A stretch of DNA of 64,000 nucleotides from NCBI GenBank assembly GCA_028698585.1, contig JAQVWG010000005.1:5983-69982 (forward strand), given 5' to 3'. Origin of the DNA: Clostridia bacterium. Its GTDB lineage: Bacteria > Bacillota > Clostridia > Christensenellales > CAG-314. Positions within the stretch are counted from its first letter, which is position 1. Every line of letters begins with the position of its first letter. A model generated the notes under the pieces. That model was not told the origin of the DNA. It was given only the letters and a program-made list of their open reading frames with translations, and ran no database searches. Both the position numbers and the translations under genes were made by a program. Shown here piece after piece: positions 1 through 21,132 of this stretch.

Positions 1-999
1 TTCATCTATAATTATGTGTTTGTATTCAAAACATTTATTACAGTATATTTCAATCAATTTTTCTTTAAGCAGAGAAAAATCAGTGCTGCGAGTTCCGCAC
101 ATTTTACAGGCAAAACCATCAATAGTATAGAATGCAACGTTTTCATAATGATAATTTTCAGATAAAAAATCCTTAAGCTTATTGTTAAAGCATAAAAAAA
201 GCACCTTCTCACCATTTTCTGAATGTCTGCGAGCTTTTTCTAACGCAATCATAGTCTTCCCTGTTCCCGCTACGCCATTAATTACAGCGCTATTTTGATC
301 TTCAAGGTAGTTTAGAATATTAGATTGTTCTTCCAAAAGACGATTAAATGCTTTCCTTCGATTATCTATATCAATAGACATAGAAGGTATAAGATTGAAG
401 CTAGGGCATAATGCATTATCCAATATATACTGGACCTCTCTCTTTGATAAATTAGTTTGCACCCCATTGGGTAAATCTATATCAAATATTGCGTTGATAT
501 CTTTTTGCGGAGAATCCAAAGTTTCCCTCAAAAGGGTTATCCGTTTATCTCCCTCAGCAGGAATTGAGACCGAATTAAACTGCGCTTTACTTATGCTCGG
601 AAACCATACGGCATGTAGAAATTTACAATGTGCTAGAATACTTGTTGCGATATCTGAATTCATTTCTTGTATATAGCTAAACAATTTCCATTTATTATGA
701 TCGGCTTGAGCGTATGGTCCATCTCCATGCATTTTTCTTCCGCTACCGTAATACCACGTTCCATTTCTATATGCAATACCGCTGCCACTCTTAGCCTCTA
801 TACATAAAAGGCCTTTTGTCGCATTAAATATCACGAAATCAGTTTCACTCTCGTATAAAGTATTTGTTACTGTTTTAACTATCTTAAAAGAATGGAAAAC
901 ATAATAATCATCGGGCAGTCTTTTCAAGCTCTCAAACATAATGTCTTCTTGCGACCCAACCTGAATTTCTTTTGGTACATCAGGAAACATTTTTGCCAT
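1..999 (-). CDS. NERD-domain (PD-(D/E)xK-like) nuclease fused to a P-loop SF1-type helicase/ATPase; only the N-terminal 333 codons are in the window (runs off the left edge)
   Basis: Absent from the ORF track because it has no stop in the window. Checked by hand: no TAA/TAG/TGA in this minus frame from 999 to 1. ATG at 999-997 lies 4 nt after the stop of the upstream helicase gene, with an AAGGAG SD inside that gene's last codons. NERD-like core ESETDFVIFNATKGLLCIEAKSG; Walker A INGVAGTGKTMIALEKA. Confidence 0.75.
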   Translation of the reverse strand, partial: MAKMFPDVPKEIQVGSQEDIMFESLKRLPDDYYVFHSFKIVKTVTNTLYESETDFVIFNATKGLLCIEAKSGSGIAYRNGTWYYGSGRKMHGDGPYAQADHNKWKLFSYIQEMNSDIATSILAHCKFLHAVWFPSISKAQFNSVSIPAEGDKRITLLRETLDSPQKDINAIFDIDLPNGVQTNLSKREVQYILDNALCPSFNLIPSMSIDIDNRRKAFNRLLEEQSNILNYLEDQNSAVINGVAGTGKTMIALEKARRHSENGEKVLFLCFNNKLKDFLSENYHYENVAFYTIDGFACKMCGTRSTDFSLLKEKLIEIYCNKCFEYKHIIIDE

Positions 1000-1003
1000 A
1001 GTA

Positions 1004-4000
1004 TTACTCCTTTATAGTGTTTACAAATTCTTCGACATCCATAGCGGAATTTAAACAAAAACATCTATATTCACTTGATGCAGAAAGCATTTGATATTCT
1101 TCATTTTTATCTGTGAAGAATAGTATTATTTTCTTGCGTTTCCACAATAAATCGGCTTGACATATCCTTTCGCCATCAATTCTAATTTGCGAAGCGAAAC
1201 CATCCGGAGAAACGCATGAATCTGTTTCTCTTACTTTATCAATTACTTTGTCAAGAACAGGCAATTCAGATTCTTCAATTTCATCTCTAACGTAATTTAG
1301 CGCTTCTTCTATAGTATGATTTCTTAATGATGTACCTATATCTATAATTCGAACCTCATGTAATACCGTAGCGGCTACTTGATCACCAATGTTTTCCGAT
1401 GTCTCATCCGTAATATCAGCAATGAGCTGTACAGCACCCTGATAATCCGCTAAAAAAGCATGAGCAATCTTATGGTCCAATATGTCATGGAATTTTTGAT
1501 TTTGATAGCTACGCAAGCAATTGTAGCATGAAGTATCGCAGCTACATTCCATATTTCTGAATGCTCTATGCAAAACATTTTGCAGGTTTTTGCCATTTTC
1601 ATCCAATAGTCGACGAACATGTCCTGCCCCGCCGGCTACAGCATCATAAAGAATTAAGGAGTAATTCAAGTCTATGTCTGCGTTGATATACTTTAAGCAT
1701 CCGTTGATATCCGACCTTTCAATATCCATTTCGTCAGATAAAGCATTCAAAACCGCATACATAACGGAAATCATTGTATTATAATCGCAATGTGAATTCA
1801 TAAAATCCATTTGAACTACATCTGTACTGAATAAATGATTAAGTACATTTTTATTTAAATTGTTGCAACCGCAAACTTTTCCTTTGGCGCTCTTATGCTT
1901 CTTTTTGGGCGTAATATAGAGTTGTCCGGACTGCATTCCTTTCATGGCTTCCTTGTCTAGTTTTCCATTTTCATCTCTGATTTTATCTAGAATACCATAT
2001 GAAAATCCGCACCACGGGCAAACGTAAAACAGAGTTTTTGATGTAACCATTATTTTATCGTTTTCTGTAGAGCGCAATATTATTTCTCTATCGCCGACCA
2101 AATACTTATGCTTATTTATCGTTTTACCGTTTCCGATATAAGAATCGTCATTTTTATATATACGATCCGGTTTGCGCATAGGAACTTCATCTTCGCGGCC
2201 GTCAGAAATAAAACCTGCCCTTGGTTCTATTGCTTTGTCCCAATTCGTATATGGCAAATCGGCATTGCAAGCAACGCATGTTTTGCGGGAATTCCTGTCA
2301 ATTTCCGTATCACAGTAATTCCATGTATGACACTTACTGCACTCGCAAACATAAGAATAATAAAAATCTGGTTTACCGTTGCGAATCGACTGTTTTAGAT
2401 ACCTACTAGTATACATTTTATTGTTCGCAACGACCTTTTCTCCTGGTGCATACTCTGATATGGCAAGTTTCAGGTCTCTGGCTAATTGCAATTCCTTTTT
2501 CTTATTATCATCATTATTTACATCTAATTCTACAGTATCAACTGGAAATCCGTATTTAGGCAAAACATTGCCACGTGCAAGAAAATCAATTATTCTTTTA
2601 TCTTTAAACTGTCCCAGTCGATATTTTATCCGACCTGCAGCCGCATAATCTTCATGCGCGACATAAGTAGCTTGTATTTCTTCAAATTCACTAACAGTAT
2701 TGTTATAGTCCTTGATTAGCAAGTTGAAAATGCCTTCGTCTCCAATAAACTTATCTAACCAAGTATAATTACTTATTCCAAACTCGTTATTTAAAGTCGG
2801 GAATGATTTCTTTAGTAAATCACCCAAATCAGCAGGCTTAGTGCGCAGTATATTACAGATTTCATCATAACCGCCTTGGTTTAATATTTTATCCGCACTG
2901 TTTTTGTTAAACAAATCAGGATTTTTCTTAAAGCAATAACTTAATGCTACGGCAAAAATATGTCGCAAAACAACCTTTTCGTTGTCTACTTTAAACAATG
3001 GCGGACATATACTCCCGCTAATCATTCGTCTCGGATCTTTAAAGTAATTGAAATCATGCGAGCTTAGTTTGGCATAAGTCACTGCATATGCTGCCGCGTT
3101 TTTACTTCTGCCGGCACGCCCGGCTCTCTGAGCATAATTTGCAGAAGTTGGCGGTACGTTTCTCAAAAAAACCGTTTCTAATTCACCGACGTCCACTCCC
3201 ATTTCAAACGTAGTGGAGCAAGACAACGCATGAATACGGTTCTTTTCAAAATCTTCTTGATAAAGAAGTCCTTCCTCTCTGCTAAGTTGCGCAGTGTGCT
3301 CTCTAATACATAAAGCCGTCAGTTCGGTTTTCTTATACAAGTCAATATAGTGGTTATTACTATATGCATTTTTGATGTCAACTTCTTCTAGTTCACCATT
3401 GCATCGCAAAATAGGACATTTATCAGCTATGTTTATGGTCGTAATTCTTCCACAGCTCTTGCACTTATACCATTTTATTGATTCATCTCCAAAAACTTTC
3501 ACAACAAAGCATTTCGCAGGCATGTAGTAAAAATTACCATTGCCTTTTTTGGCATGATATTCATTGCGTCTATTGACTATGACATTATCAAAATATTCCT
3601 CAAGAATCTGATTTGCAGTTTTCCCATCAACGCCCAAGCGTTCTATTAATAGTTGCTGCCTGTAATTTTTATACCACGCATCGGCTTTTCCCTCACGATT
3701 GCGTGCTATCCAGCCTGAAAATTCAGGTGATGCACCAGTAGCTTTTATTTTGTATATCGCTTTTTGCCTATATGTATAAAAAATATATTTTCTATCTTCT
3801 TGGTCTATTTCGCTGTCATCTACACCAATGGCACCGAAATATGCGAATGTCATAGCAAGTTCATCCAAAATCGACTTGCATATATTGGGTTGAATGCCAT
3901 ACATCCTACAAAAATAGTCTACCGTTCTTTTATCATTACCTGCATATTTAAACTGTAAAAAGCCCAAGGATGTTAAACTACCGGGGCGACGGCTATTAAC

Positions 4001-6232
4001 CAATTCTGTTAATACCGCTATCCAAGCGTTTTTATTCGATTGAGTTTTTAATTCCGCACGGCTATAATTTGATATTAGCTTTTCCTTGAAGGTTTCTTTG
4101 TTGTAAAAAAGTTTTGATAGTACTTCAACAATATGCTCAGCCGTCCAAGATTCGTCAACCATGTCAGTTCTGTTTTTCTCTATAAGTTGAATGATACCAC
4201 GTCTTCGCAAAAATTCTTTATAGGACTTATCCATATACGAAGCAAAAAACGCAGCTTCACTTCTGCTGTCGGAAAAAGCTAAAAACTGTTTGCCTCCTTC
4301 TCGCTCATATTCGATATCGTCTTCACGCTCAAATACTGTTTTTGAAGGCAACTCCTCAAAAAGCGATGTTGCAATAACAGCGGTAGCAGCCTCATTACCT
4401 AAATAAAACCTATTGTATTTGCCGTTCTGACAATATACACAATTATCCGCATTGTTTTTATATTCCTTAAGAAGGATATAAGGAACTCCGCAATCGCACC
4501 TGGGTTTACCATCATCGAACATTGATATTTTTCCGCATATAGGGCATAGGTAATATTTCTCTATACTACTGTCTTTAGGTAATTTATACTGATTTTCGCC
4601 TTCATCGTCGATTTCTTCCAAATCGTCATATTCTACTTCATCAAAATCCGCATCATCTTCTTTACATATATGAAAATAACGTATTTTTTCATCTCCTTTG
4701 GGATATTGACCGACTTGTTCAATAGCCCCGTCCTTAACCGTACCGACAATTGCTATTTCTCCGCAATTTTTACATAGAGCTAGTTCAAAAACCTTACATT
4801 CGGTTTTGCCGACTGTTTTAGATATTTTTCTTTCTAAATAGATTTCCTTTACGCCATAAAGTGGTGCATATACGCCTTCTAATGCTCTCATAAAAAAATG
4901 ATACCGTGCATCAAGCAATGCTCGATTATTCTTATAGGCCTGTGTGCAGATAAAGATGAAAGCAACAGCATCTCTTATATTAATGTTTAGCATTGAAGCA
5001 AAATCTTTTATATTTGTTGGTTCATGAATGCTATTTCGCATCCTGCGATAAAATGGCGAAGAATAGCATAAGTTATACAAGTTCTCTTCCGTGGCTAATG
5101 ATAAATCATATGGTACGTCGAAATCGGTAAAAACGGACCGAAATTCTTCAGCAGTACAACAATTCACCAATTCCGCAAAAATAGCACTATCTATGGAGCA
5201 CTCTTTTACGCCCGTGAAATCCTCATTGATTCTTTCTCCAAAGACAATACTGCTATTATCAAAGTCCTCTCCGCATAGATTTTCTGCAAATTTTATTATG
5301 TTTCCTTCTGATTTACCTTTTTCGCCAAGGGTGGCGCTCGTAAGAATAAACTGCGCTTTATTTTTTCCGTTTTGTATTCTCGCTTTTAGCCTACGCAGAA
5401 GAAGTGCGGTTTCCATACCAGTTGCGCCGCTATAGATATGAGCCTCGTCCAATACTACAAATTTAAACTTGGAGTTGGAAAAAATCACGTCGTTTTCGGG
5501 GCGCAGTAACATATGTTCAAGCATTGCGTAGTTTGTGCATAAAATATGAGGAGGCCTCTCCCTCATCTGTTCACGTGAAATCCGTTCATTTTCAAGTGAC
5601 GATCTTATCTCTTCGCAATCTTCATTAAAGTGTAAATCATCGTATACGGCTTTTGCATCTTTTTCGGTTTCTTTTGTATCTCCGTTATATACACCGAAGG
5701 TTATACTTGGATAGTACATTAAGATTTCACGCAAGCGCTTCATCTGATCGTTTGCTAGTGCATTCATCGGATATATCAGAATAGCACAAACACCGTCATC
5801 AAGTGAACCTTGTTCTTTTTCTCGTAGTAATTCGTTTATAATCGGAATAAGGAAGCATTCCGTTTTTCCAGAACCGGTGCCTGTCGTAATAACGACGTTT
5901 TTTCCGGCATTGATTTTTTCTATGGCTTTTTCCTGATGTGAGTAAAGTTTGCGGTCTAATGGAAGTTTTCTCTTATGTATTCTATCTGTAGGCTTATTCT
6001 GTTCAATCTCCCTAAATAATGGGGATAATATTTTTCGGTTAATTAAGTCGTTTATAGAAACAGACGGATTGAAAACATCCTTTATATCAACATAAGGACC
6101 TTTTGAAATAGAAAAATGCAACGCTTCCCTAAATTGGTTTTGCAATTCTTCATCCGCAAAATTAAAAGTAGTAGTAATGTAGTCTATGAACTCAGATTTA
6201 ATCTTTTGAGAAACATTGGCTGGGTTAAACAT
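1004..6232 (-). CDS. Giant (1742 aa) SF2 DEAD/DEAH-type helicase with several zinc ribbons and a C-terminal DUF1998/MrfA-type zinc-binding module; DruE-like
   Basis: Helicase motifs TGTGSGKTE (I), VLDEAH (II), TSAT (III), QRAGRAGR (VI). DUF1998 signature CSCDTSCYNCLRSYQNQKFHDILD. The ATG overlaps the stop of the upstream gene (TAATG at 6234-6230). Confidence 0.85.
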   Translation of the reverse strand: MFNPANVSQKIKSEFIDYITTTFNFADEELQNQFREALHFSISKGPYVDIKDVFNPSVSINDLINRKILSPLFREIEQNKPTDRIHKRKLPLDRKLYSHQEKAIEKINAGKNVVITTGTGSGKTECFLIPIINELLREKEQGSLDDGVCAILIYPMNALANDQMKRLREILMYYPSITFGVYNGDTKETEKDAKAVYDDLHFNEDCEEIRSSLENERISREQMRERPPHILCTNYAMLEHMLLRPENDVIFSNSKFKFVVLDEAHIYSGATGMETALLLRRLKARIQNGKNKAQFILTSATLGEKGKSEGNIIKFAENLCGEDFDNSSIVFGERINEDFTGVKECSIDSAIFAELVNCCTAEEFRSVFTDFDVPYDLSLATEENLYNLCYSSPFYRRMRNSIHEPTNIKDFASMLNINIRDAVAFIFICTQAYKNNRALLDARYHFFMRALEGVYAPLYGVKEIYLERKISKTVGKTECKVFELALCKNCGEIAIVGTVKDGAIEQVGQYPKGDEKIRYFHICKEDDADFDEVEYDDLEEIDDEGENQYKLPKDSSIEKYYLCPICGKISMFDDGKPRCDCGVPYILLKEYKNNADNCVYCQNGKYNRFYLGNEAATAVIATSLFEELPSKTVFEREDDIEYEREGGKQFLAFSDSRSEAAFFASYMDKSYKEFLRRRGIIQLIEKNRTDMVDESWTAEHIVEVLSKLFYNKETFKEKLISNYSRAELKTQSNKNAWIAVLTELVNSRRPGSLTSLGFLQFKYAGNDKRTVDYFCRMYGIQPNICKSILDELAMTFAYFGAIGVDDSEIDQEDRKYIFYTYRQKAIYKIKATGASPEFSGWIARNREGKADAWYKNYRQQLLIERLGVDGKTANQILEEYFDNVIVNRRNEYHAKKGNGNFYYMPAKCFVVKVFGDESIKWYKCKSCGRITTINIADKCPILRCNGELEEVDIKNAYSNNHYIDLYKKTELTALCIREHTAQLSREEGLLYQEDFEKNRIHALSCSTTFEMGVDVGELETVFLRNVPPTSANYAQRAGRAGRSKNAAAYAVTYAKLSSHDFNYFKDPRRMISGSICPPLFKVDNEKVVLRHIFAVALSYCFKKNPDLFNKNSADKILNQGGYDEICNILRTKPADLGDLLKKSFPTLNNEFGISNYTWLDKFIGDEGIFNLLIKDYNNTVSEFEEIQATYVAHEDYAAAGRIKYRLGQFKDKRIIDFLARGNVLPKYGFPVDTVELDVNNDDNKKKELQLARDLKLAISEYAPGEKVVANNKMYTSRYLKQSIRNGKPDFYYSYVCECSKCHTWNYCDTEIDRNSRKTCVACNADLPYTNWDKAIEPRAGFISDGREDEVPMRKPDRIYKNDDSYIGNGKTINKHKYLVGDREIILRSTENDKIMVTSKTLFYVCPWCGFSYGILDKIRDENGKLDKEAMKGMQSGQLYITPKKKHKSAKGKVCGCNNLNKNVLNHLFSTDVVQMDFMNSHCDYNTMISVMYAVLNALSDEMDIERSDINGCLKYINADIDLNYSLILYDAVAGGAGHVRRLLDENGKNLQNVLHRAFRNMECSCDTSCYNCLRSYQNQKFHDILDHKIAHAFLADYQGAVQLIADITDETSENIGDQVAATVLHEVRIIDIGTSLRNHTIEEALNYVRDEIEESELPVLDKVIDKVRETDSCVSPDGFASQIRIDGERICQADLLWKRKKIILFFTDKNEEYQMLSASSEYRCFCLNSAMDVEEFVNTIKE

Positions 6233-8928
6233 TATTTGTCCTCCTTATCAAAATAGCAAGAGCTACAAGAAATAATATCTTTAAAGTTTTGAGCTTCGTT
6301 AGTTAATTCTTTACTGACAGTGTTGACGTTCAATAAAGTTATTGGTTCGCTAAGCGCATATATTTTTATTGAATTAATTCCTTTGCGCTCGATTTCAACT
6401 TGCATAGTTTTACGCTTTGGAATATGTAATACTCCCTGATAAACGGGATACAATTCTTCACGCACATAGATTATGTTTTCTATTACATGCCGGTCAAACT
6501 TAATCTTTCCTTTTTCGGTTTTAGTGCTTTTTACAATAATGCTAACGCCGTCGAAGTAGAATTTATCTAAATTGCCAACAATGTAATCCTCATATGTTCG
6601 CAATATTTTAAAATTGGTTTCATAGATTTGATCAGATATAAGGCTTATTCGCAAATTGTAATAACCGTCATGAATATCGTCTGTTTCCAATTTATCTACC
6701 AATCCGCAATTAAACGTGTTAGTTACGTTTTTATCTTCGAACTCTAATGAAAAACGTGCATTGTTGGGGCCAATAAAGCTATTGCCGAAATCTACAGATA
6801 GTATTTTTTCATCGAAGAAAATAAAAGGTTCACCTATCATTTCAGCATCAAAATCAATTTGAGTCAAACAATAATTTTTTTTAGATATTTGTAGTTGTAT
6901 ATTTACTTTAGAAAAGCTTCTGTTCGAAGATATTTGAGTTAGCATCGAACCGAGAAGGAATTTATTATTATCATGTGCGGATTGTTGAAGCTTTTCACCG
7001 CCAATAGTAATATCAATATCAATGTTGCTTTGATTGTCAATCTCAATTATAGAACCGCTATGAATGGATTCATGCCATAAGGGTTTTCGCCTGCATACAG
7101 AAAGCCATTCACCGTCATCGATACGCCAATGCAGATATGAAACTTTTACCATTAAAAGTGCATCTTCTACAGCTACCTTAAATTCATCAATAGAAGCGTC
7201 TACACGAGTTGCCGACAAAATTTCCCCATAATAATTTATTGACAAACTTCCTACGTCGTTATCAAAATAATAATCTTTATCAAAATTTATATGCAATTGT
7301 GGATTTATATAGTAGTTTATTCGATGCAGAGGTTTTTTTAGAGCAGTTATTTCGCTTATAACTAACTTATGAAACCCGATTCCGTTAGCTTGTATGGCAG
7401 AAAGGTCAATAGTAATTTCATTTCCTTCAACTTTTTGAATTAACAAGTTCATGGGCGTAGGTTTTTCATTATGAATGACCACTAATTTGCTGGTATCATA
7501 TTCCACCAATATCATTTTGCAATTGCCGACTTTATAGTAAATGTCATACTCATCCTCGTTCAAAATCATAGTCGAATAAGGAACAGGATTATATCCTAAA
7601 TTAAATCTGGAATTGTGAATTTCTGTATTGAAAAAAACTGTTTTAGATTTGTAAGAAATATAATCGTCTTCAAGAGCATCTAAAACTGCGAAACCTTTTG
7701 GTCCTGAAATATTCCGTATATTGGTATAATCGATTATTTGTAGATTGTATGGATAGAATAGGAAATATTGTCCAGGCTTACAGCTTGATTTAATCTCGCG
7801 AGTTGACTTGAATAAAACATAATCCCTGAAAAGCTTTTCTTTTGAATCGTAGACTTCGATGCCGTCTATTTCCATCGTAATACGGAGGTCAATTTGATCT
7901 TCAAATTCTTCTGCATAAGAAGTTAATGAAATATCGATTTTTTTAATTTTTCTACGAATATCTTTTCCAACAACATTATATTCAAAGTCATCGATAGGAA
8001 TGGAATTGCGATATAGGTGAACTTTTACTTCGCACTTATCTTCATTAAAGATACGGATTTCGGGAATAAACACACATACTTGATTATCTTCATTTAGTTC
8101 GTATCCTGCATATATTTTTGTTAAATCTGTTATGACTTGTTCCTTGCATTGAGAACGTCGACGTCCCTTATTGACGTGTTCTATAGCAAAAAGTTTGGTT
8201 ACTATAGAATTACATATGTCAGAATAATAGTTATTTTCCGCTTGTTGTCCATTGAAATATATACTATCGAATTCCCGAATTGTCCTGTCAATGATTTTAG
8301 CTACCTGCTCGGGACATTGACTACACGCATATTTCATAGCTGCTCGGATAGAGTATGTTTTACCATCAAAGCTCACATCATCATCAAGTGTATTTTCATT
8401 TCCAGCAAACTTACGGGCAAGCATCTTCGCTATTTGTAAATACATATCATTTTGAGGCTGATATGAAAAATCTAAAACATCTTCATCAATGAATAAATCC
8501 CATAGTAACTTAATGAATGCTTCTACCGAAATAGCAGGGGCAAAAGCATTCAGAAGAAATATTTCTCGAAACATTCTTTTCCCACCTTTCGATATAAAGA
8601 TGGTTTTGTTGTATTTCTTTAGAACAACCTCAAATTCATTATAAAACCTAGTAGGACTGATACTGGGGTCATCAAATACCTCACTGAAAATTTTAACCCA
8701 AAACCGTCCCTCATCACCTTCGCCCCATTTTCTAGCCACATTAACGATGGTTACTATTAATAGTTCAATCTGAGAATTTGTGTATGTCTTTGACCAACTT
8801 TGGTTAACACTTTTATAAAAAATTTGACACTCTTGGCACATAGACTTAATTTCGTCTGAATCAAAATAAACATCTCCAATAAAGTCGCTATTTAATGCCT
8901 TAATAATTTTATCTTGAAGTAATGACAT
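6232..8928 (-). CDS. Large (about 898 aa) protein with no recognisable catalytic motif; DruH-like by size and by position upstream of the helicase-DUF1998 gene
   Basis: Long uninterrupted ORF in an AT-rich stretch. Start moved to the Met at 8928 (MSLLQDK...), which has a G-run SD 8-15 nt upstream; the track start 8946 has none. Stop overlaps the next ATG by 1 nt. Confidence 0.7.
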   Translation of the reverse strand: MSLLQDKIIKALNSDFIGDVYFDSDEIKSMCQECQIFYKSVNQSWSKTYTNSQIELLIVTIVNVARKWGEGDEGRFWVKIFSEVFDDPSISPTRFYNEFEVVLKKYNKTIFISKGGKRMFREIFLLNAFAPAISVEAFIKLLWDLFIDEDVLDFSYQPQNDMYLQIAKMLARKFAGNENTLDDDVSFDGKTYSIRAAMKYACSQCPEQVAKIIDRTIREFDSIYFNGQQAENNYYSDICNSIVTKLFAIEHVNKGRRRSQCKEQVITDLTKIYAGYELNEDNQVCVFIPEIRIFNEDKCEVKVHLYRNSIPIDDFEYNVVGKDIRRKIKKIDISLTSYAEEFEDQIDLRITMEIDGIEVYDSKEKLFRDYVLFKSTREIKSSCKPGQYFLFYPYNLQIIDYTNIRNISGPKGFAVLDALEDDYISYKSKTVFFNTEIHNSRFNLGYNPVPYSTMILNEDEYDIYYKVGNCKMILVEYDTSKLVVIHNEKPTPMNLLIQKVEGNEITIDLSAIQANGIGFHKLVISEITALKKPLHRINYYINPQLHINFDKDYYFDNDVGSLSINYYGEILSATRVDASIDEFKVAVEDALLMVKVSYLHWRIDDGEWLSVCRRKPLWHESIHSGSIIEIDNQSNIDIDITIGGEKLQQSAHDNNKFLLGSMLTQISSNRSFSKVNIQLQISKKNYCLTQIDFDAEMIGEPFIFFDEKILSVDFGNSFIGPNNARFSLEFEDKNVTNTFNCGLVDKLETDDIHDGYYNLRISLISDQIYETNFKILRTYEDYIVGNLDKFYFDGVSIIVKSTKTEKGKIKFDRHVIENIIYVREELYPVYQGVLHIPKRKTMQVEIERKGINSIKIYALSEPITLLNVNTVSKELTNEAQNFKDIISCSSCYFDKEDK

Positions 8929-8982
8929 TCTAAATTCCCCCCCCATTGAGCAATTAGCGCATAAGATTTTAATGTTTCATAT

Positions 8983-10194
8983 TTATAGATAATATCCCAA
9001 TAAAAAATCTATTGCATTTATAGTGGTTACCCCGTCGTGGTCTTTTGTGAAAAAATCATCCAAAGTAATAATGTATTTAGGGTAGTTATCTTTGATTTCA
9101 CTAAAAACAGCCAACTCTTGTTTAAGCTTATCATCACTTAAAACGGTTACGGCAACCTGAATGTATTTTAAACTGTCATCATCGCCTTTTACAATAAAAT
9201 CCACTTCCTTGTCATCAACCTTGCCTGTAGCTATTTTATAACGCCTGCGTTTAAGTTCAAAAAACACGAGATTTTCCAGTAGTTGCGAAAGCTCTACGGT
9301 TTTATTGTTAAGAATATAATATTTGAATCCGAAATCGGTAACATAATATTTATTTATCAGTTTCAAATACTCTTTGCCTACAACGTCATAGCGATCCGCC
9401 TTATAAATAAAATAACAATCTTGCAAAGTATCAAAATAACTTGCAACAGTATTGTAGGCAACTCGTGTTCCATTGCTGTTTAGGGTATCGGTGATTTTCT
9501 TTGCTGAGCTAAGGCAGCCGATATTATAAACGATATAGCTCAATATATTTTCAACAATTTGCCTCGTTGCGGCAGAGTTGCGCTTTAAAACATCTTTTTC
9601 AAGTATGGTTTTGTAAACGCCTTGAATATATTCCCTTTGTGCAGACGAGCCGTTGTCAAACATATAAGAGCCGGGCATTGCGCCGTAGGTTATATACTCC
9701 ATAAACAAATCACGTTTATTTTTGTTGCCGTCATTATAGTGGTCGTAATACTCTTTGAAAGAAATAGGCAGTACATTTATTTCTACATAACGTCCGGTTA
9801 AAAAGGTCGCTATTTCGGAAGATAAAAATTTTGCGTTAGAACCGGTCAAATAAACGTCTATATCATCCTTAACAAAAAGACTGTTTACAACTTCTTCAAA
9901 ATTTGCCACTCTTTGTATTTCATCCAAAAATACATAGAGTTTCTTCCCATTACGCTTTGAAATAATATAATTGTATAATGCGTGTTTATCTAAAAACGCT
10001 TCATTTTCCATTTCCTCAAAGTTTATAGAAACAATTTGCGAATCACTGACGCCTTTCTTTTTTAATTCTTTAATATATAAAATAAATATGGTTGACTTTC
10101 CCGCGCGCCTTAACCCGGTCAAAACCTTGATTATTTTCTTATCTTTATAGGTCAACAGCCAATCCACATATTCATTACGTTGTATTAATTGCAT
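8983..10194 (-). CDS. AAA-family ATPase of the AAA_14 + DUF4143 type
   Basis: Walker A LTGLRRAGKST, Walker B LYVFLDEIQ. AGAGGT SD 8 nt upstream of the ATG. First gene of the co-directional block. Confidence 0.8.
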   Translation of the reverse strand: MQLIQRNEYVDWLLTYKDKKIIKVLTGLRRAGKSTIFILYIKELKKKGVSDSQIVSINFEEMENEAFLDKHALYNYIISKRNGKKLYVFLDEIQRVANFEEVVNSLFVKDDIDVYLTGSNAKFLSSEIATFLTGRYVEINVLPISFKEYYDHYNDGNKNKRDLFMEYITYGAMPGSYMFDNGSSAQREYIQGVYKTILEKDVLKRNSAATRQIVENILSYIVYNIGCLSSAKKITDTLNSNGTRVAYNTVASYFDTLQDCYFIYKADRYDVVGKEYLKLINKYYVTDFGFKYYILNNKTVELSQLLENLVFFELKRRRYKIATGKVDDKEVDFIVKGDDDSLKYIQVAVTVLSDDKLKQELAVFSEIKDNYPKYIITLDDFFTKDHDGVTTINAIDFLLGYYL

Positions 10195-10222
10195 TATGTT
10201 ACCTCTTTATTATGCTAATGTT

Positions 10223-10251
10223 ATTATACATCAGTAAAATATAAAAGGCAA
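10223..10251 (-). promoter_or_regulatory. Candidate sigma-A promoter of the defence-type operon
   Basis: Minus strand reads TTGCCT, 17 nt, TATAAT. The -10 ends about 28 nt upstream of the ATG at 10194. Confidence 0.45.
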
Positions 10252-10367
10252 TAGCAAAGTGAAAACTTTTTCAATAAATCAAAAAACTTTTCAAAATTGG
10301 GACAATGGTATCGCAAATATTCAATCGTTAACAATATTCGAATTTCGCACCAACCGCCCCGCCAGTG

Positions 10368-10408
10368 ACAATCGCGTTTGAACTTACGTTTAAACGCGAT
10401 TGTTTTTT
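10368..10408 (+). terminator. Orphan rho-independent terminator-like hairpin
   Basis: Perfect 12-bp stem ACAATCGCGTTT / AAACGCGATTGT with a 12-nt loop, followed by TTTTT on the plus strand only. No plus-strand ORF lies upstream. Confidence 0.4.
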
Positions 10409-19955: not shown

Positions 19956-20480
19956 CAAAAAAACGAAAATTTGTTGCATAGCGTGAAACAGATTTACAAA
20001 TTGTCATACGCATTGCACTTGTTGCCTGTTTAATTATGTAATTTATTGCTTTATAATTGAACTGTCTAATATAACTAAGGAGCAATCATTACGCTATTAG
20101 GCAATTCATTCGAGTGCACGTTCAATGTTGTGATTTATGAGCTTATGACAGTAGAATAGTTAATATAATATCTCAAGTTTAGCGTTTCTCACATTATCAC
20201 ACATGCGTAAGGTGCTTATATGTGCAATAGAATTACCCTAAGATTGTATAACTTTCTTTATTATAAGCGTTCACAGCGCAGCTCAACATACATCTTAGGT
20301 ATACCCCAAGTAAGGTCAAAACCGAATAAGCATACTCGAACCGAGTTCTTCGTTTATTGATATAATCCCAATTTAAGGTTCATATATTAAACTTGTTCCG
20401 TGTGTAGAAATAGAATACATTCTGGGCTATAATTAAGCGCATATTGATTACGCTTATAGATATGTGATTAATCGCATTTA

Positions 20481-20900
20481 GTGTTGTACGAGCGTTTATG
20501 CTATGTGGTATTCCCACATTTCATTCGTTAGATATAGGTTTATCCTAGTGGTGACAAAAAACATATATAATAAGCAACGTATACTTATATCCACATTAAC
20601 GCGTTGCATACATAGCTATGGTGTTGTACGAGCGTTTATGCTATGTGGTATTCCCACATTTCATTCGTTAGATATAGGTTTATCCTAGTGGTGACAAAAA
20701 ACATATATAATAAGCAACGTATACTTATATCCACATTAACGCGTTGCATACATAGCTATGGTGTTGTACGAGCGTTTATGCTATGTGGTATTCCTGCATG
20801 TTATCCGTTAAATATGTGTTATTATTAACAGTGACAAAATAACCGTATACGAAATAAGCAACGAATAATTATCAACACAGTTAATAAATGCCTCTGCCCG
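20481..20900. repeat. 140-bp tandem direct repeat: two identical copies plus one degenerate third copy
   Basis: 20481-20620 and 20621-20760 are identical base for base. The third unit matches for its first 34 nt (20761-20794) and then continues at roughly two-thirds identity with conserved islands (gtgacaaaa, ataagcaacg). Confidence 0.9.
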
Positions 20901-21132
20901 TATGTATATATGTATATATTAATGCTGTGCGTTCAGTATGTCACTCATTAATCGTAGTATTGCGCAGTCGCTTGATATCGTAGTTATGTTATGTATTACA
21001 TTCTATTGTTATTACCGAGCGCTAATGGCATATACTGGTTACCTCCATTATACTAACGCCATTATCCTTAAGATGGTTTATGGTAATGATGTAGTACGTT
21101 ATTAACATTACACAATAATGTTAATTGCATGA

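Follow-up and report, generated by a model that had tools for sequence, protein, structure and literature searches.

Druantia is among the commonest anti-phage systems, and the mechanism of its type III form is only now emerging, in Escherichia coli. The large subunit DruE is a 3'-5' helicase that acts on single-stranded DNA (ssDNA) or 3' overhangs (10.64898/2026.05.12.722862; 10.64898/2026.05.13.724758; PMC13192584). Its partner DruH has been placed in the YjiT family, from the immigration control region of E. coli (PMC13192584); cryo-EM resolved an N-terminal globular domain, immunoglobulin (Ig)-like subdomains and a C-terminal domain, and the protein binds ssDNA in competition with ATP (10.64898/2026.05.12.722862), while another group has proposed it as a phage sensor (PMC13192584). 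Here we analyse a 64,000-nucleotide (nt) stretch of contig JAQVWG010000005.1 (GenBank assembly GCA_028698585.1, positions 5,983 to 69,982, forward strand) from a Clostridia bacterium of the Christensenellales, hereafter the window, in which positions 1-10251 carry a four-gene block built around a DruE-type helicase. Our analysis indicates that three of these genes, encoding a large partner protein, the helicase and a nuclease-helicase with a NERD domain, probably constitute a horizontally acquired anti-phage defence operon of the Druantia lineage, with the NERD-helicase proposed to supply DNA cleavage in trans. The initial annotation, made from the sequence letters, had placed the block beside a Druantia III without known mechanism, a description now outdated by several 2026 preprints, in which DruE emerges as a 3'-to-5' helicase that works on ssDNA, and DruH as an Ig-domain protein that binds ssDNA or acts as a sensor.

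A DruE-family helicase with tightly coupled neighbours

The open reading frame list and direct reading of the sequence both gave four consecutive open reading frames on the minus strand of window positions 1-10251, with coordinates and junctions as first annotated. The domain content was recovered as well: AAA_14 and DUF4143 in the first gene to be transcribed, no domain match in the second (904 amino acids (aa) as annotated), DEAD, Helicase_C and MZB in the third, and NERD with a superfamily 1 (SF1) helicase in the fourth. The partner gene and druE meet in a TAATG stop/start overlap at 6232, with AAGGAGG ahead of it, bearing out the claim that a protein of about 900 aa without annotated domain precedes the helicase and is translationally coupled to it. 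At the other end of druE, the stop codon occupies 1004-1006, the ATG of the NERD-helicase lies at 999, and the AAGGAG that precedes it is inside druE.

The third gene (1004-6232, minus strand) encodes a compact, DruE-like superfamily 2 (SF2) helicase of the YprA family, 1742 aa long, with a DEAH core, Helicase_C and an MZB (formerly DUF1998) zinc module. Judged by its profile matches, this protein is a DruE-family (YprA-family) defence helicase. The PADLOC models, the check that had been suggested for it, matched at 7.1e-169 (DruE1), 4e-160 (DruE3), ~1e-120 (DruE2) and 2.4e-102 (DruE4), and the best match among PDB sequences was a 9tu7 chain (1.4e-77), set against 3.5e-19 for the MrfA/YprA entry 6znp, which places the protein with DruE as first annotated and not with the MrfA/YprA repair type. 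The 9tu7 chain has 2108 aa and is titled only 'DEAD/DEAH box helicase'; we presume it to be E. coli DruE, given that E. coli DruH is the adjacent entry, 9tud. The middle genes of eight related loci encode proteins 49-53% identical to the window DruE. No PLDc Pfam match was found in the 1742-aa protein, and 168 residues follow the last CxxC of its zinc module, compared with 412 in E. coli DruE. Pfam additionally returned a weak match to YjiV_N for the window DruE and its homologues.

The NERD-helicase as a third component

The gene downstream of druE (1-999, minus strand) is cut by the window edge, leaving the 333-aa N-terminal part of a NERD-SF1 helicase. A public contig of identical sequence (L001; L-numbers denote the loci compared here) supplied the missing end, so that the truncated gene could be recovered as a full 571-aa reading frame (L001:15234-16949). 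Pfam identified NERD (2.8e-9) and ResIII/AAA_19, with UvrD_C_2 in the full protein and its homologues. PADLOC matched it over its full length to RTasNERD-Hel (8.9e-68), and to Nhi at 3.3e-8 over residues 225-441 only, which correspond to the helicase core. In 11 homologues there is no variation in the D...ExK triad of the NERD (PD-(D/E)xK) nuclease, in the Walker A motif GxAGTGKT or in the motifs IDE[GA]QD, NCRNT and YVGxSRA, and the nuclease and helicase activities are therefore both predicted to be intact. RTasNERD-Hel derives from a cluster of NERD-helicases found beside UG34 reverse transcriptases (PMC9226505), and the NERD-helicase module therefore serves more than one kind of system.

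Gene neighbourhoods mark the NERD-helicase as a genuine third component of the DruE operon. It is the next gene after druE, across a gap of 1-21 nt, in each of the 14 loci whose sequence extends sufficiently beyond druE (window/L001, L002-L005, L008, L009/L010, L011/L012, L026, L027, L029 and the distant L019 and L025). Matrices of pairwise identity, computed for each of the three proteins over 10 loci, are correlated (r = 0.96-0.98; Spearman 0.91-0.92), a correlation that partly reflects shared organismal ancestry but that, this notwithstanding, shows the three genes to move together as a unit. Fusions of the partner to a UvrD helicase in relatives are independent evidence that the lineage works with an SF1 motor. 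Of the extended operon first annotated, the coupling of the NERD-helicase is thus conserved and the upstream ATPase is not core; when the suggested co-occurrence of all four genes was checked, the trio was present in every sufficiently long locus and the ATPase directly upstream in four of eight lineages.

The DruE proteins themselves differ with the presence of this gene. In the window, the C-terminal tail of DruE, ~150-168 aa past the CxxC of MZB, is encoded at 1004-1510 (minus strand). In a comparison of tail lengths among loci, the segment after MZB measures 144-168 aa in 10/10 unsplit DruEs that precede a NERD-helicase gene, as opposed to 30-35 aa in 3/3 two-gene loci lacking one. A Pfam search of the tail at E <= 10 on seven homologues gave no match, and no acidic residue is invariant among the homologues, so the tail is not an obvious active nuclease. 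A single-sequence AlphaFold2 (AF2) model was unusable, with a predicted local distance difference test score (pLDDT) of 41, and hhalign against E. coli ArmC gave a non-significant alignment at the extreme C-terminus of ArmC (E = 0.14). We infer that the tail serves as an adaptor to the NERD-helicase; an inactivated Vsr-like domain is no more than a guess.

A partner of predicted DruH-like layout and unrelated sequence

The partner gene spans 6232-8928 on the minus strand (898 aa), or reaches 904 aa if translation starts at 8946. Both starts had been annotated, and while the reading frame is as described, the start at 8928 is the likelier one, since its ATG has a GGGGGGG Shine-Dalgarno sequence and agrees with the public gene call (P0001) and with the N-termini of homologues. 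The 904-aa protein had no Pfam, PADLOC or NCBIfam match even at E <= 10.

The partner had been proposed to be DruH. The DruH models in PADLOC matched none of 37 superfamily members (the window protein and 36 increasingly distant relatives), whereas E. coli DruH, used as a control (L016, ATCC 8739), matched 10 of these models with E from 0 to 2e-20. When the family profile was compared with E. coli DruH in hhalign, no alignment was obtained (E = 0.33), and a profile search of PDB sequences did not find the DruH entry 9tud. Identity of the partner with DruH by sequence was rejected on these searches. Of the Druantia-III-like pair first described, the DruE helicase and a coupled partner stand, and sequence similarity to DruH does not.

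The predicted structure nevertheless has a familiar layout. An AF2 model built from 24 sequences (mean pLDDT 81) contains a helical N-domain (~1-250) and then a chain of some six or seven Ig/FN3-like beta-sandwich domains, an architecture that, as modelled, resembles that published for DruH in spite of the unrelated sequence and that may reflect either remote homology or convergence. Foldseek searches of PDB and BFVD returned generic Ig/FN3 chains only (titin, contactin, complement MG domains, S-layer proteins and phage tail proteins) and no specific relative; the TM-scores of ~0.1 are low because Ig/FN3 chains are flexible. Entry 9tud was not among the 50 Foldseek matches listed, its presence in the fold library not being established. 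A reading of the Ig-chain partner as a surface adhesin was considered and rejected, as the protein has no signal peptide or hydrophobic N-terminus and is translationally coupled to a helicase gene.

Conservation is uneven along the partner, with the N-terminal 130 residues most conserved (55% identity to the window protein) and residues 441-610 most variable (25%). It is also the fastest-evolving of the three proteins, with a mean pairwise identity of 36%, compared with 53% for DruE and 50% for the NERD-helicase, and the same faster divergence has been reported for DruH relative to DruE (PMC13192584). Profile comparison in hhalign linked the family to the DruE partner on a Clostridium butyricum plasmid (90% probability, E = 1.7e-6, 623 columns).

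The upstream ATPase is facultative

The first gene of the block (8983-10194, minus strand) encodes a 403-aa AAA_14/DUF4143 ATPase (Pfam: AAA_14 2.9e-32, DUF4143 1.7e-11). It matched the PADLOC model PDC-S01 (PDLC04787) at 1.7e-136, with residues 1-400 aligned to model positions 6-408 of 412; PDC-S01 is a candidate single-gene defence system in PADLOC, and DUF4143 is catalogued among the PD-(D/E)XK families (PMC3424549). A gap of 54 nt separates the ATPase from the partner gene on the same strand, and because a terminator scan found none between them, the ATPase is probably co-transcribed with the trio in the window.

Among related loci, 4/8 informative lineages (the window, L002, L005/L028/L031 and L029/L030) have an AAA_14/DUF4143 gene immediately ahead of the trio and in the same orientation. 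In another lineage, L004/L007, the slot (8582-9931) is occupied by an AlbA_2 (Schlafen-like)-HATPase_c_4-HTH protein, and three lineages have no comparable gene there. An AAA_14/DUF4143 gene is not directly upstream in L008, L011 or L027, the last a member of the L029/L030 lineage, nor in the distant trios L019 and L025; in L009 the nearest one is 7 kb away, beyond a Gabija system. Where the DruEs are ~50% identical, the ATPase copies are at most 32% identical and some pairs cannot be aligned, the copies being mutually non-orthologous. We read the ATPase as a facultative, exchangeable defence-island gene outside the conserved unit, though an NTPase-type gene recurs in the upstream slot more than we would expect by chance. 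WYL-domain regulators also occur near the system in L008, L017 and L014, and together with the AlbA_2 swap this suggests a variable regulator position beside the trio.

Related loci and their neighbourhoods

The close partner family comprises 24 clusters among 5.8e9 proteins, all of 878-926 aa and none with a Pfam domain, in human-gut Clostridia metagenome-assembled genomes (Oscillospiraceae, Christensenellaceae, Candidatus Scatosoma). An exhaustive profile search of 1.84e9 proteins returned 394 representatives at E <= 1e-3, which define a superfamily of partners of compact DruE helicases. It includes two more distant trios, L019, in which the partner carries an N-terminal RNA-polymerase alpha-CTD extension and is followed by a DruE of 1728 aa and a NERD-helicase of 574 aa, and L025 (982 + 1785 + 595 aa). 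In a four-gene variant (L017/L018), the partner module continues at its C-terminus into a UvrD helicase, giving a protein of ~1600 aa, an arrangement (the P0113 family) that forms at least 35 clusters; DruE here consists of two proteins, a divergent core (1065 aa) and one with MZB (614 aa), and the NERD-helicase ends the operon. Two-gene loci without a NERD-helicase were found in L021/L022 (914 + 1610 aa), in L024 (1309 + 1615 aa) and in L013, on the C. butyricum plasmid pNPD4_2 (1069 + 1559 aa).

The genes around the related loci are those of defence systems: Gabija, SIR2, PLD/DpnI, type I restriction-modification and McrBC-like. The island in L009 (2674-22715), for example, comprises an AAA_14/DUF4143 gene, a GajA/GajB-like Gabija system, a Macro-domain protein, an ADP-ribosylglycohydrolase, PLD/DpnI_C and SIR2_2 genes, with the trio lying within it. 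A tblastn search of plasmids with the 898-aa protein and P0047 gave no match, and neither did a scan of viral contigs; these searches thus provide no evidence of phages or plasmids carrying the trio.

Two further loci were of unusual form. On a human-gut contig (L033, 1137-3095), ~114 N-terminal residues of the partner are followed almost directly by the ~300 last residues of DruE and then by a NERD-helicase, which looks like an internally deleted remnant of a trio or a misassembly. On a Pseudanabaena plasmid (L014, 3364-18920), hypothetical proteins of 898 aa and 310 aa precede a 2082-aa DruE, which is followed by a convergent 1896-aa DEAD/DEAH helicase and a 3'-5' exonuclease; the 898-aa protein of this plasmid is unrelated to the window partner family (hhalign E = 0.23).

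Transcription signals and base composition

A promoter-like TTGCCT-17-TATAAT lies at 10223-10251 on the minus strand, 29 nt upstream of the ATG of the ATPase. These hexamers, which had already been annotated, are present and were the top-scoring site of our promoter scan (10/12 matches). Such pairs are, however, no commoner in the AT-rich block than in shuffled sequence (44 observed, 42.8 expected), and a promoter upstream of the ATPase gene is therefore plausible, supported by its position only. Further upstream, a hairpin with a 17-bp stem (10367-10404, no strand assigned) separates a major facilitator superfamily (MFS) transporter gene from the defence block; its T-run is on the plus strand only, and it probably serves to insulate or terminate transcription at the edge of the island.

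The block had been described as more AT-rich than the flanking catabolic operon, and this is the case: GC content is 35.0% in positions 1-10250 and 41.5% in the remaining window, and GC at third codon positions (GC3) is 28-34% in the block, compared with 42-49% in the sugar-catabolism genes next to it. As L001 stops 36 nt past the stop codon of the NERD-helicase, the other edge of the island lies out of view. Elsewhere in the window, a second low-GC stretch (33.7%) with a change in the sign of GC skew lies at 20001-21000, at the far end of the catabolic operon, and a cobalamin riboswitch occurs at 58162-58372 on the plus strand (RF00174, 88.9 bits), the sole Rfam family at gathering threshold across the whole window.

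Proposed mechanism and alternative explanations

By analogy with type III-A, DruE would load on ssDNA or on 3'-tailed intermediates of phage replication and recombination and unwind them 3' to 5', with the Ig-chain partner acting as a sensor or regulator. The conserved N-terminal 130 aa of the partner may form the interface with DruE, and the hypervariable central Ig region may do the recognition. The NERD-SF1 helicase would then cleave DNA in trans, replacing the in-cis PLD domains of III-A DruE, and would probably be recruited via the extra C-terminal domain of DruE. A precedent for an SF1-helicase effector in a YprA-family system is ArmD of ARMADA II. A more elaborate form of this scheme, possible though doubtful in our view, is a two-motor helicase-nuclease in which the SF2 motor of DruE (3'-5') and the SF1/NERD protein, docked via the DruE tail, would together destroy phage DNA processively, in the style of RecBCD/AddAB, gated by the Ig sensor.

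Several observations weigh against a three-gene defence operon that cleaves through its NERD-helicase. The role in defence is inferred from homology and context, and as the partner has no detectable sequence similarity to DruH, the transfer of the DruH role to it is an analogy. The two-gene loci L013, L021 and L024 lack the NERD-helicase, and the pair of partner and DruE may suffice alone; standalone NERD/SF1 proteins such as Nhi reportedly also defend alone (Bari et al. 2022). Contact between DruE and the NERD-helicase is a prediction from the co-occurrence of the tail, a domain that Pfam, AF2 and hhalign did not identify. In addition, the PLD domains of III-A DruE have been reported by the Wahl laboratory to be dispensable (10.64898/2026.05.13.724758), so that clearance of the Druantia type may not strictly depend on a nuclease.

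One alternative is that two independent systems, a compact two-gene Druantia and a standalone Nhi-like NERD-helicase, share one operon. It is favoured by members of the superfamily that have two genes and no NERD-helicase (L013, L021/L022, L024), Nhi-type enzymes reportedly act alone, and related NERD-helicases accompany UG34 reverse-transcriptase loci as RTasNERD-Hel (PMC9226505). We consider it unlikely, as the NERD-helicase is always the next gene, at 1-21 nt, in 14/14 loci spanning 24-56% sequence divergence, its divergence tracks that of the partner and DruE, the DruE tail co-occurs with it, and it is kept even in the rearranged four-gene variant. Slightly less probable still is an obligate four-gene system with the AAA_14/DUF4143 ATPase as a functional subunit or dedicated regulator; an accessory role for the ATPase appears somewhat more probable than such an obligate one. 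The ATPase gene lies 54 nt upstream in the same orientation, no terminator intervenes, and the one well-placed promoter-like site precedes it; the same position is filled by AAA_14/DUF4143 in 4/8 lineages, and the AlbA_2-HATPase_c_4-HTH protein of one more lineage hints at an exchangeable regulatory slot. An obligate subunit, however, fits poorly with its absence from the position directly upstream in L008, L011, L027, L019 and L025, with its displacement by 7 kb in L009, with ATPase identities of at most 32%, or none alignable, next to ~50% for DruE, and with the place of the family among the candidate single-gene systems of PADLOC.

A housekeeping role in DNA repair, as for MrfA/YprA, would account for the YprA core and MZB that the helicase has in common with MrfA (6znp, 3.5e-19), and the toxicity of Druantia III-A after mitomycin C (10.64898/2026.05.13.724758) shows that its substrates overlap with those of repair. 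The DruE models nevertheless score ~560 bits where MrfA scores 71 bits, no MrfB-like exonuclease partner was found, the distribution is patchy and rare (24 clusters), and the genes lie in a defence-island context with atypical GC, which together make this explanation very improbable. The three-gene defence operon of the Druantia lineage remains the reading that we prefer.

This variant constitutes a natural experiment, in which the in-cis nuclease of III-A is missing and a NERD nuclease-helicase is present as a separate gene, together with a matching DruE domain. With the nuclease on its own gene, and thus separately removable or mutable, the system offers a handle on how unwinding by DruE becomes phage clearance. 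It also offers a handle on large Ig-rich partners, by providing a second partner family in the DruH position that is unrelated in sequence to DruH, and on the recruitment of SF1 helicase effectors by the YprA family, for which ArmD of ARMADA II is a parallel case. With it, a system otherwise studied almost exclusively in Proteobacteria and Mycobacteria gains a member from gut Firmicutes. If the two-motor scheme were true, the UvrD-sensor fusions and the swap of PLD in cis for NERD-helicase in trans would show a Druantia lineage that time and again reassembles its effector from exchangeable motor-nuclease modules.

Comparison with known systems

Druantia in general requires DruE, a place taken here by the 1742-aa YprA-family helicase with MZB. 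None of the PADLOC components of type I (DruA-D), type II (DruM/F/G) or type IV (DruF/L; defined in PMC8565338) was matched by the 904-aa protein or its neighbours. MrfA/YprA enzymes are short (~750 aa), usually have an MrfB exonuclease partner and lie in a housekeeping context; the window DruE, by contrast, has 1742 aa, no exonuclease partner and a defence-island setting.

The NERD-helicase shares with Nhi and RTasNERD-Hel an architecture in which a nuclease domain at the N-terminus precedes an SF1 helicase, with the match to RTasNERD-Hel extending over the full length (8.9e-68) and the similarity to Nhi confined to the helicase core (3.3e-8). Unlike Nhi, it is not a single-gene system, nor is it the partner of a reverse transcriptase as in UG34 loci, but an obligate-looking third gene of a DruE operon.

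Two systems described in PMC12458937 also contain a YprA-family helicase. TALON, from Chloroflexota, consists of an ARMADA-like YprA helicase, a NERD nuclease, TPR-CSD and TBP (PMC12458937), and resembles the window system in bringing a YprA-family helicase together with a NERD nuclease. It differs in phylum, and in that the window operon has no TPR-CSD or TBP Pfam domains, its NERD is fused to a helicase, and its large helicase is DruE-like and without RNase H. ARMADA II (ArmA-D), which likewise has such a helicase, ends with ArmD, a RelE-like domain joined to a UvrD/GajB-like SF1 helicase (PMC12458937). Both ARMADA II and the window system thus close with an effector-fused SF1 helicase, and the N-terminal 250 aa of the helicases are 32% identical; however, no BrxHII-like helicase or PglX-like methyltransferase was found in the window or related loci, the effector domain is NERD and not RelE, and Vsr-type nuclease domains are those of ArmC. 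A full-text literature search for NERD together with Druantia returned the description of TALON and unrelated mentions only, with no prior description of the trio found, and the trio may already be contained, without comment, in the 'Druantia III-like' branch of PMC12458937 (Bell et al. 2025).

Type III is defined by DruH (YjiT family) beside DruE, and the window partner lacks sequence similarity to DruH. With III-A, represented by E. coli DruH-DruE (9tud, 9tu7), the window system nevertheless shares the order of partner then DruE, the stop/start overlap, and the helicase core with MZB, and the predicted N-domain and Ig-like layout of the partner resembles that described for DruH. It differs from III-A in that the two C-terminal PLD domains of III-A DruE are missing from a window DruE that is ~360 aa shorter, and in the addition of the NERD-helicase gene. 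Type III-B (PMC12458937; 10.64898/2026.05.13.724758) has a compact DruE without PLD and one large, domain-less partner encoded upstream in an overlapping gene, as does the window. The two-gene loci L013, L021 and L024, whose partners belong to the same superfamily as the window partner, fit III-B when compared by its published description only. The window system is closest to this compact 'III-B' form, and is set apart from the two genes of III-B by a conserved third gene and an extra DruE domain of ~150 aa.

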